The position numbers and the translations under genes were made by a program. DNA of 397 nt from Escherichia coli (GTDB lineage Bacteria > Pseudomonadota > Gammaproteobacteria > Enterobacterales > Enterobacteriaceae). Of this stretch, positions 1 through 397 are shown piece by piece. Position 1 is the stretch's first letter. The number at the start of each line of letters is the position of its first letter. The DNA lies in the NCBI RefSeq assembly GCF_003334315.1, contig NZ_QOWR01000135.1. One strand, given 5' to 3'. The notes under the pieces are model-generated. The model was not told the DNA's origin. It did not search any database and saw nothing but the letters and a program-made list of their open reading frames with translations.

Positions 1-159
1 CAGCCTGCCGTGACGGTCATACCGGTAAAGATAGTGCGCGTCACGGGCGATACGGTTATCCGGCCACATGCTGAGGGTGCTGTCCGGGTGCAGCTCCGGG
101 TCGGGCAGGCGGTTACCTGCCGGGTCTGTGGCATACGGGATATCAATGCCCAGGTTACA
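1..159 (-). CDS. Rhs-family YD-repeat protein, internal core fragment (partial; 5'-truncated, 3' end continues beyond window position 1); probable orphan rhs cassette or rhs pseudogene
   Basis: Reverse-complement frame with codons 159-157 down to 3-1 is open for 53 codons: [53 protein letters not shown]. It ends in the Rhs/YD-repeat signature Y-R-Y-D-x-x-G-R-L and closely resembles, from memory, an E. coli Rhs core segment (...[40 protein letters not shown]). GC about 63% versus about 29% in the adjacent spacer. The same frame stays open upstream to 186 ([11 protein letters not shown]-rich, no Rhs similarity) and is closed by TAA at 189-187; the open stretch 186-1 has no ATG/GTG/TTG before the Rhs-like sequence (first in-frame ATG is at 69-67). 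Confidence 0.85.
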
Positions 160-321
160 TATAATAATAAGAGCAATTAACTTAATTTATTTGTTTATAA
201 TGCGCTTACTTAATACAAACCATTGAATATACCCTCCTGACAGAAAATAAAGCCATATTATTATCGCCATAATATACTTACTATCAATCCTTACGCCAAT
301 AATGTCTGATACAGTCCCTAT
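160..321. other. AT-rich spacer (about 29% GC) between the Rhs core fragment and IS1
   Basis: Hand count gives 46 G+C in 161-320, against 95 G+C in 1-150. The composition changes abruptly around 150-160, where the Rhs-like sequence ends. Confidence 0.7.
187..321 (-). pseudogene. 3' remnant of an ORF interrupted by IS1 (hypothetical small hydrophobic protein; possibly an Rhs-associated immunity gene)
   Basis: Minus-strand frame starting at 321 is open for 44 codons (IGTVSDIIGVRIDSKYIMAIIIWLYFLSGGYIQWFVLSKRIINK) and stops at TAA 189-187. The other two minus-strand frames hit stops within their first 12 codons (TAG 320-318 and TAA 293-291; TGA 286-284). The open frame abuts the IS1 end at 322, and within IS1 the same frame has a stop at 339-337, so it is not read out of the element. 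Only internal ATG is at 270-268, with no convincing Shine-Dalgarno. Confidence 0.3.
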
Positions 322-344
322 GGTGATGATGCCAACTTACTGAT
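322..344 (+). repeat. IS1 left terminal inverted repeat (IRL, about 23 bp)
   Basis: GGTGATGATGCCAACTTACTGAT at the element boundary. Contains an IHF-like site on the complementary strand (about 333-345, CAACTTACTGATT read as YAANNNNcTGATW, 5/6 in the conserved hexamer); IHF binding within IS1 ends is established knowledge. Confidence 0.8.
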
Positions 345-356
345 TTAGTGTATGAT
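329..356 (+). promoter_or_regulatory. insA promoter (PIRL), partly within IRL: -35-like ATGCCA (329-334), 16-nt spacer, -10 TATGAT (351-356)
   Basis: Hexamers read directly from the sequence; -10 TATGAT is 5/6 to TATAAT. The IS1 transposase promoter is known to overlap IRL and to be repressed by InsA binding there. Exact hexamer assignment is my inference. Confidence 0.45.
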
Positions 357-376
357 GGTGTTTTTGAGGTGCTCCA

Positions 377-397
377 GTGGCTTCTGTTTCTATCAGC
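377..397 (+). CDS. insA: IS1 InsA (transposition regulator / N-terminal part of the InsAB' transposase), first 7 codons only
   Basis: GTG start at 377-379 preceded by Shine-Dalgarno GAGGTG (366-371, 5-nt spacing) and an in-frame TGA at 365-367. Codons GTG GCT TCT GTT TCT ATC AGC give (M)ASVSIS, matching the InsA N-terminus MASVSISCPSC. Frame ends exactly at the window edge. Confidence 0.85.

Follow-up and report, generated by a model that had tools for sequence, protein, structure and literature searches.

An IS1 insertion interrupts ybfB beside a start-less orphan Rhs fragment in the rhsC element of Escherichia coli

We analysed a stretch of 397 nt of Escherichia coli DNA (assembly GCF_003334315.1, contig NZ_QOWR01000135.1), called the window below, which was placed in the rhsC element by comparison with 5,426 complete E. 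coli genomes. Positions 1-321 presented 100% identity with E. coli K-12 MG1655, where the genes follow each other as rhsC, ybfB, ybfO (pseudogene), ybfC, and H-repeat remnants. From left to right, the window contains a fragment of an orphan Rhs core, the 3' part of ybfB, and the left end of the insertion sequence IS1 (Table 1). An earlier reading, made by a model from the letters alone (the sequence-only reading), had described AT-rich DNA around an IS1 insertion at about 160 bp from an Rhs fragment. Both descriptions hold: the GC content is 0.20-0.35 across 141-320, and 165 nt separate the end of the Rhs homology (156) from the first IS1 base (322). No RNA family was found in the window at E <= 1.

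Table 1. Features of the window, and IS1 insertions mapped in the surrounding interval, given in window-style positions
Feature	Positions	Strand or orientation	Composition or basis
Left part of the window	1-140		GC 0.58-0.72; composition profile
Orphan Rhs core fragment linked to rhsC (ybfO/rhsO in K-12): its 5' end, without N-terminus, running off the left edge	1-156	-	NF041261 match
First canonical in-frame start (ATG), the annotated start of K-12 pseudogene ybfO (L003 5221)	67-69	-	Translations, K-12 annotation
Middle part, very AT-rich	~141-320		GC 0.20-0.35; composition profile
AT-rich spacer of 30 nt between ybfB stop and Rhs homology	157-186		Stop-free, in frame with both neighbours
ybfB 3' fragment, 44 codons plus TAA, residues ~65-108 of 108	187-321	-	Translation IGTVSDIIGVRIDSKYIMAIIIWLYFLSGGYIQWFVLSKRIINK, then stop, identical to the K-12 YbfB C-terminus
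Two overlapping native promoter-like sites in ybfB directed toward Rhs: TTGGCG-17-TATATT (299-271) and TTGATA-16-GATAAT (287-260)	260-299	-	Promoter scan
Sole IS1-dependent outward promoter candidate: -35 TTGGCA (335-330, in IRL), 18-nt spacer, -10 TATCAG (311-306, in ybfB)	306-335	-	Read from sequence; weak
Left-hand repeat of the presumed 9-bp target-site duplication, AGTCCCTAT	313-321		Inferred from one junction and the 9-bp duplications of neighbouring IS1 copies
IS1 left end, first 76 of 768 bp, ending at the window edge	322-397	+	Exact 76-mer in 364 records annotated IS1A/IS1B family
Right part of the window	322 onward		GC ~0.40-0.43; composition profile
IS1 left inverted repeat (IRL), variant GGTGATGATGCCAACTTACTGAT	322-344	+	Read from sequence
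Promoter-like ATGCCA-16-TATGAT, overlapping IRL and reading into insA	329-356	+	Promoter scan; position fits the weak IS1 promoter PIS1
IHF-consensus-like site AATCAGTAAGTTG in the IS1 end, 1 mismatch	333-345	-	Not significant alone
insA start, GTG then MASVSIS, 7 codons in the window	377-397	+	Read from sequence
IS1 insertions in the interval	151-159, 214-222, 312-320, ~429-437, 486-494, 565-573, 926-934	Same as window	Mapping against K-12
IS1 insertions in the interval	174-182, 198-206, 300-308, 466-473, 600-608, 702-710, plus the L011 IS1-bounded deletion	Opposite	Mapping against K-12

The right part of the window is a genuine IS1 end, and chance resemblance is excluded. The terminal inverted repeat of about 23 bp that marks IS1 (GGTGATGCTGCCAACTTACTGAT) is present, and positions 322-344 agree at 22 of 23 bases with the canonical IRL (GGTGATGCTGCC...), the form found in the homologous insertion of strain STN0717-20 (NZ_AP022482, here L001). 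The insA reading frame opens about 55 nt inside the repeat and reads inward, its GTG at 377 being IS1 base 56 and the base homologous to the annotated start of the IS1 CDS in L001 (locus 6376). The exact 76-mer, A variant included, was retrieved from E. coli records (Table 1), and IS1-like matches were present in 4,963 of the 5,426 genomes. The A variant of the IRL represents an isoform common in nature, also carried by two other insertions within the same interval (L007 and L008). Full 768-bp IS1 copies are present at homologous sites, and the one in L001 displays the features of a full element (IRR and the insAB' frameshift). Thus, the sequence-only reading had named the element correctly, and it was also right that insA points away from the Rhs fragment, since the GTG reads rightwards.

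PIS1, whose place is matched by the promoter-like site reading into insA, is an extremely weak promoter that partially overlaps the IRL (PMC12428005). Besides the IHF-consensus-like site in the IS1 end, a second one with one mismatch (ATTCAATGGTTTG) lies at 216-228 on the minus strand, where it coincides with the insertion in L002 (duplication 214-222). Two or more such matches were obtained in 19 of 200 shuffled sequences, which makes them not significant, and IHF sites were dropped as the cause of target choice. Binding of IHF to IS1 ends is established, as reported by Gamas and colleagues in 1987.

For the Rhs fragment, the stop-free minus-strand translation of 1-165 matched profile positions 907-959 of 1261 of NCBIfam NF041261 (RHS_core; E = 7e-30), that is, C-terminal RHS core homology with neither N-terminus nor start. 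The homologue in L001 is annotated by PGAP as 'RHS repeat-associated core domain-containing protein, missing N-terminus', a pseudo-CDS ending at window 156. We found no in-frame ATG, GTG, or TTG upstream of the ATG at 69-67, so that about 30 codons have no start, and the fragment deserves the term 'start-less' that the sequence-only reading had given it. The remaining parts of an orphan module fall beyond the window and can be read in the K-12 locus, which is identical: the core ends in ...CAGGATCCGATTGGGCTG (QDPIGL, an instance of the DPxGL motif; L003 6112-6129), and it is followed by a divergent C-terminal domain of 174 codons and then by the small ORF ybfC.

At the DNA level, the core of the orphan is about 97% identical to that of rhsC over 1,045 nt, a homology that ends near window 141. 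Recombination between the two would loop out rhsC-CT, ybfB, and IS1 together. Activation of a Salmonella orphan by such core recombination was reportedly described by Koskiniemi in 2014. Recombination of the rhs core repeat is also treated elsewhere (PMC5526668).

Two further observations concern the surroundings of the fragment. On the minus strand (157-189), ybfB and the orphan Rhs fragment share a frame, divided by the ybfB TAA and 10 open codons, and after that TAA no stop interrupts the frame on its way into the Rhs core; this is probably a coincidence, or a leftover of orphan displacement. Apart from that, the orphan Rhs fragment is eroded by several IS types: in NZ_CP074359 (L009, 1-1456) and NZ_AP045826 (L014, 1-1456), an IS3 truncates it about 620 nt from its upstream end, besides the IS1 near ybfB.

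The AT-rich DNA between the Rhs fragment and IS1 is mostly a gene. Positions 187-321 on the minus strand are the 3' 135 nt of ybfB, and the insertion is therefore intragenic. The gene is an AT-rich, membrane-protein-like ORF upstream of the orphan ybfO/rhsO and ybfC; in K-12 it has 108 codons (327 bp), and it begins on the base with which rhsC ends (L003 4777). Across the site, K-12 reads ...cagtccctat directly followed by aaatatt, and the sequence continues as aaatattagagc..., the rest of ybfB, uninterrupted. In L001, PGAP lists along the window plus strand the RHS pseudo-CDS, 'ybfB, missing N-terminus' at the place matching 187-321, the IS1 transposase, ybfB missing its C-terminus, and rhsC. 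IS1 splits ybfB after about codon 64-67 of 108. Since the AT-rich DNA is ybfB coding sequence, the primary consequence is gene disruption, and the correct annotation of this stretch is a ybfB pseudogene fragment interrupted by IS1, not intergenic DNA upstream of Rhs.

At the protein level, the truncated ybfB product of L001 would have 67 native residues, then G, then a stop. The hydropathy profile of YbfB displayed hydrophobic segments centred near residues 10-22, 48-68, and ~92, the third being weaker, and the interrupted protein would lose its last 41-44 residues, including this third, weakly hydrophobic segment. The sole in-frame start in the 3' fragment is the ATG at 270, which gives 27 aa. 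A fusion ORF running from IS1 into the 3' part of ybfB was considered and ruled out, because a stop inside the IRL closes the ybfB frame.

The gene holds the position of the RhsC immunity gene: like an rhsI, it is a small ORF overlapping the rhs stop (L003 4777) with matching low GC (0.20-0.35). On this positional ground we regard it as a putative immunity gene. Searches retrieved no family for YbfB in Pfam, NCBIfam, or PADLOC, and none for RhsC-CT in Pfam or PADLOC. In the literature, we found no experimental paper on YbfB neutralising RhsC-CT and no report of an IS1 insertion in ybfB; one paper pairing rhsC with H-NS dealt with an incidental rhsC point mutation and was set aside as irrelevant to the ybfB insertion.

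To follow the site across the species, we queried the 5,426 complete genomes with 120 nt centred on the K-12 empty site. The empty site, with a match over at least 80% of the length, was retrieved from 2,664 genomes, and any match from 2,693, all of them chromosomal; K-12 and about 2,660 other genomes keep ybfB intact at the site. Using instead 120 nt centred on the window junction, a contiguous match was obtained in 17 genomes (H38-H54), none of them perfect. Their flank is one base shorter (cagtcccta, then GGTGATGCTGCC), and their 768-bp IS1 comes with a 9-bp duplication, CAGTCCCTA, at 312-320 in L001. The exact window junction (extra T and A-variant IRL) was absent from the 5,426 complete E. 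coli genomes and from the species-representative genomes, and a relaxed pattern holding both junction variants also gave no match in the latter set.

We consider it very probable that the window represents one junction of a 768-bp IS1 that transposed into the ybfB coding sequence, in a simple and near-neutral event of AT preference rather than a regulatory adaptation. As the window holds one junction, the insertion with its 9-bp duplication AGTCCCTAT is inferred, and it makes predictions for the other side: past the right end of IS1 we would expect AGTCCCTATAAATATTAGAGC..., which is the duplication and then the remaining ybfB, so that AGTCCCTAT would be followed by AAATATTAGAGC... at the right junction. 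The choice of target would reflect the taste of IS1 for AT-rich DNA, possibly bent or bound by nucleoid proteins.

IS1 is polar in both orientations, and therefore the orphan ybfO-ybfC would be uncoupled from any read-through from rhsC-ybfB. Laboratory E. coli appears to keep the locus transcriptionally silent, and the orphan is a pseudogene without a start; we therefore take the insertion to be most likely neutral, or close to it. Most likely, IS1 merely breaks ybfB, without switching on the neighbouring Rhs fragment. The insertion represents one route by which an Rhs toxin-immunity module decays.

The window is not an isolated case. We mapped further insertions with queries joining the flank to either IS1 end, placing each copy against K-12 and expressing its duplication in window-style positions (Table 1). 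At least 15 independent IS1 events, the window counted, fell within ~780 bp (151-934), which comprise the 3' end of rhsC, ybfB, and the spacer (loci L001, L002, and L004-L015). Eight of them are inside the 327-bp ybfB, and three are within 22 bp, at 300-321. Apart from the window itself, seven events have its orientation and seven the opposite one, the latter found with a chimeric IS1-right-end query.

As a matched control, 321 nt of phrB (GC 0.55) fused to the same IS1 end retrieved one event (two genomes) among 5,423 genomes. Seven same-orientation events against one in the control, with half as many genomes carrying the locus, gave a binomial P = 0.0025, although the size of the enrichment is approximate, as it comes from a single control region and from genome counts that are phylogenetically non-independent. 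The preference of IS1 for AT-rich targets (Zerbib et al. 1985, cited in PMC9330008), to which the sequence-only reading had appealed, is borne out at this locus, with at least 15 events in ~780 bp vs. one in the phrB control. These counts from natural genomes mark the segment as a natural hot region for IS1: the AT-rich portion of an rhs element that comprises the C-terminal and immunity sequences takes up IS1 far more often than a neighbouring gene of normal GC.

One could go further and regard rhsC-CT, ybfB, and the spacer as a genuine IS1 hot spot, arising either from a specific nucleoprotein structure (e.g., a bent filament bound by H-NS or IHF) or from recurrent selection, which would either inactivate the gene for RhsC immunity or insulate the orphan. 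We judge this unlikely; if true, the locus would allow the target choice of IS1, or the decay of an Rhs toxin-immunity pair, to be studied in a natural setting.

Some of the mapped loci present additional features. In NZ_CP151548 (L006, 3243-4010) and in L014 (3044-3386), the annotation upstream of IS1 names rhsB (missing C-terminus) instead of rhsC, which may come from recombination between rhs elements or from PGAP naming of near-identical cores. NZ_CP180600 (L002) carries another IS1 copy, IS1X2, at 902-1670, within the H-repeat/ybfQ remnant and flanked by an 8-bp duplication, CAAAAAAT. The two IS1 copies flanking ybfO-ybfC in this genome are a potential composite transposon or deletion substrate.

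The IS1 in the window could also mark the edge of a deletion or an inversion, or an IS1-IS1 recombination event, with the 5' part of ybfB, rhsC, or more gone or relocated. One related genome presents such an event in this interval. In NZ_CM136169 (L011, 1977-2745), IS1 is flanked by window-style 677 on one side and 4830 on the other, without a target duplication: a deletion of ~4.15 kb, bounded by IS1, removed almost all of rhsC and left ybfA next to IS1. Adjacent deletions mediated by IS1 are well known (PMC9330008), and the window junction was unique among the genomes searched. However, 13 of the 14 mapped IS1 copies are simple insertions (12 with perfect 8-9-bp duplications, and L004 with one mismatch in 9 bp), and the near-identical insertion one base away is simple in all 17 genomes that carry it. 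We therefore give a rearrangement at the window only a slim chance.

The sequence-only reading had raised the possibility that the IS1 end influences expression of the Rhs fragment. In its full form, this would mean that expression of the fragment and of ybfC is altered either by a fusion promoter, built on an outward -35 in IS1, or by the breaking of a silencing filament, as in bgl. The IRL does contain an outward TTGGCA, five of six bases identical to TTGACA, and fusion promoters involving IS1 have been described for bla-TEM-1, acrEF, and bla-TEM-6 (PMC9330008). A fitting -10 is missing, though: a 17-nt spacer leads to GTATCA, and an 18-nt spacer to TATCAG, the only well-placed candidate, which agrees at four of six bases and lacks the near-invariant final T. 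The promoter scan did not call this pair. It found four promoter-like sites in the window, compared to 1.1 +/- 1.1 in shuffled sequences, and the two native ones directed toward Rhs were not created by IS1, because they are identical in K-12; they could act if silencing were relieved.

The rhsC region in K-12 is reported to be a silenced, protein-occupied domain (PMC8282354). The silenced AT-rich target pictured by the sequence-only reading fits this published description, which equally fits a phenotypically silent insertion. Genomic SELEX placed an intragenic peak of RNA-polymerase holoenzyme, for two minor sigma factors, inside K-12 rhsC, in its AT-rich 3' part (PMC5493296). Such a peak suggests that AT-rich DNA resembling a promoter may also be present beyond the insertion, on its other side. 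Presumably it lies ~130 nt upstream of ybfB, as we estimate from older genome coordinates.

The mapped insertions speak against a regulatory benefit. Both orientations are equally used, which argues against selection for an outward-reading end facing the orphan, and orientation bias was dropped as a mark of such selection given the seven opposite-orientation events. Furthermore, the proposed target is a pseudogene whose first canonical start is 250 nt off. The orphan Rhs toxins of Salmonella owe their transcription to P2, an internal promoter of the conserved core, and not to upstream DNA (PMC7043789).

We looked at the corresponding stretch in E. coli, which lies ~730-840 nt beyond window position 1 in the orphan and is 72% identical to P2 in both K-12 copies (L003 6022-6129 in the orphan and 4151-4258 in rhsC). 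A Salmonella-type P2 was dropped as the driver of the orphan, the -35 (ATGATG) and -10 (TACAAC) being degraded. The hexamers are changed, and therefore internal expression of the E. coli RhsC-type toxins should not be assumed. This P2-like stretch neither supports nor replaces the idea of an IS1 influence.

Altogether, the sequence-only reading stands for the identity of IS1, the direction of insA, and the AT-rich preference, whereas it missed that the AT-rich DNA is ybfB, and its regulatory effect finds no support. With a weak -10, no orientation bias, and a start-less pseudogene as its object, an influence of IS1 on the Rhs fragment appears unsupported by the sequence, and we hold it to be very improbable.

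That recurrent IS1 in rhsC-CT/ybfB results from selection, either inactivating a costly or self-harmful toxin-immunity module or insulating the orphan, and not from target preference, is hardly credible: eight independent insertions in a 327-bp gene with three in 22 bp would suit it, as would the rhsC often still annotated intact among the examined ybfB-disrupted genomes, but the non-coding spacer and rhsC-CT are hit by insertions as well, their spread broadly tracks the AT-rich stretch and not one gene, they are rare (17 genomes of the ~2,690 with the locus for the commonest allele), the locus is silent in K-12 (PMC8282354), and losing immunity while keeping the toxin is expected to be harmful if the system is active.

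The reading we prefer, a simple IS1 insertion in ybfB, involves a known element and a known kind of event. Its closest relative is the adjacent insertion in 17 complete genomes, such as NZ_AP022482, which is in the same gene and the same orientation, is a full 768-bp IS1 with a 9-bp duplication, and is already annotated in these public genomes, where PGAP labels both ybfB halves as pseudogene pieces beside the IS1 transposase. However, its junction is one base to the left (...CAGTCCCTA vs. ...CAGTCCCTAT in the window), its IRL carries a C in place of the A of the window, and its flank carries one SNP at window 79. Most simply, the window would hold an independent insertion of a different IS1 isoform at a one-base offset.

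Compared to the activation of silent bgl by IS1 or IS5 and to IS1 fusion promoters (Prentki et al. 1986; PMC9330008), the locus presents an IS1 in AT-rich silenced DNA upstream of a coding region and an IS1 end with an outward-facing -35-like hexamer. Unlike in these systems, IS1 sits within a gene, with a start-less pseudogene as the downstream target at a distance of 165 nt; the -10 that would pair with the hexamer is poor, neither orientation predominates, and the case is known from its sequence alone.

Finally, the locus has the organization of the Rhs main and orphan loci (Poole 2011, PMC3150448; Koskiniemi 2014; Starsta 2020, PMC7043789): a main rhs gene, a small ORF, an orphan core with its own C-terminal domain, and a second small ORF (ybfC), with a 97%-identical core repeat of ~1 kb that flanks rhsC-CT/ybfB and could recombine. 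It differs in that RhsC-CT, YbfB, ybfO, and YbfC are here known only as sequences, and in that the P2 stretch of the Salmonella orphans has degraded hexamers at the rhsC locus. IS1, for its part, is an accidental passenger in this interval and no part of the Rhs system.
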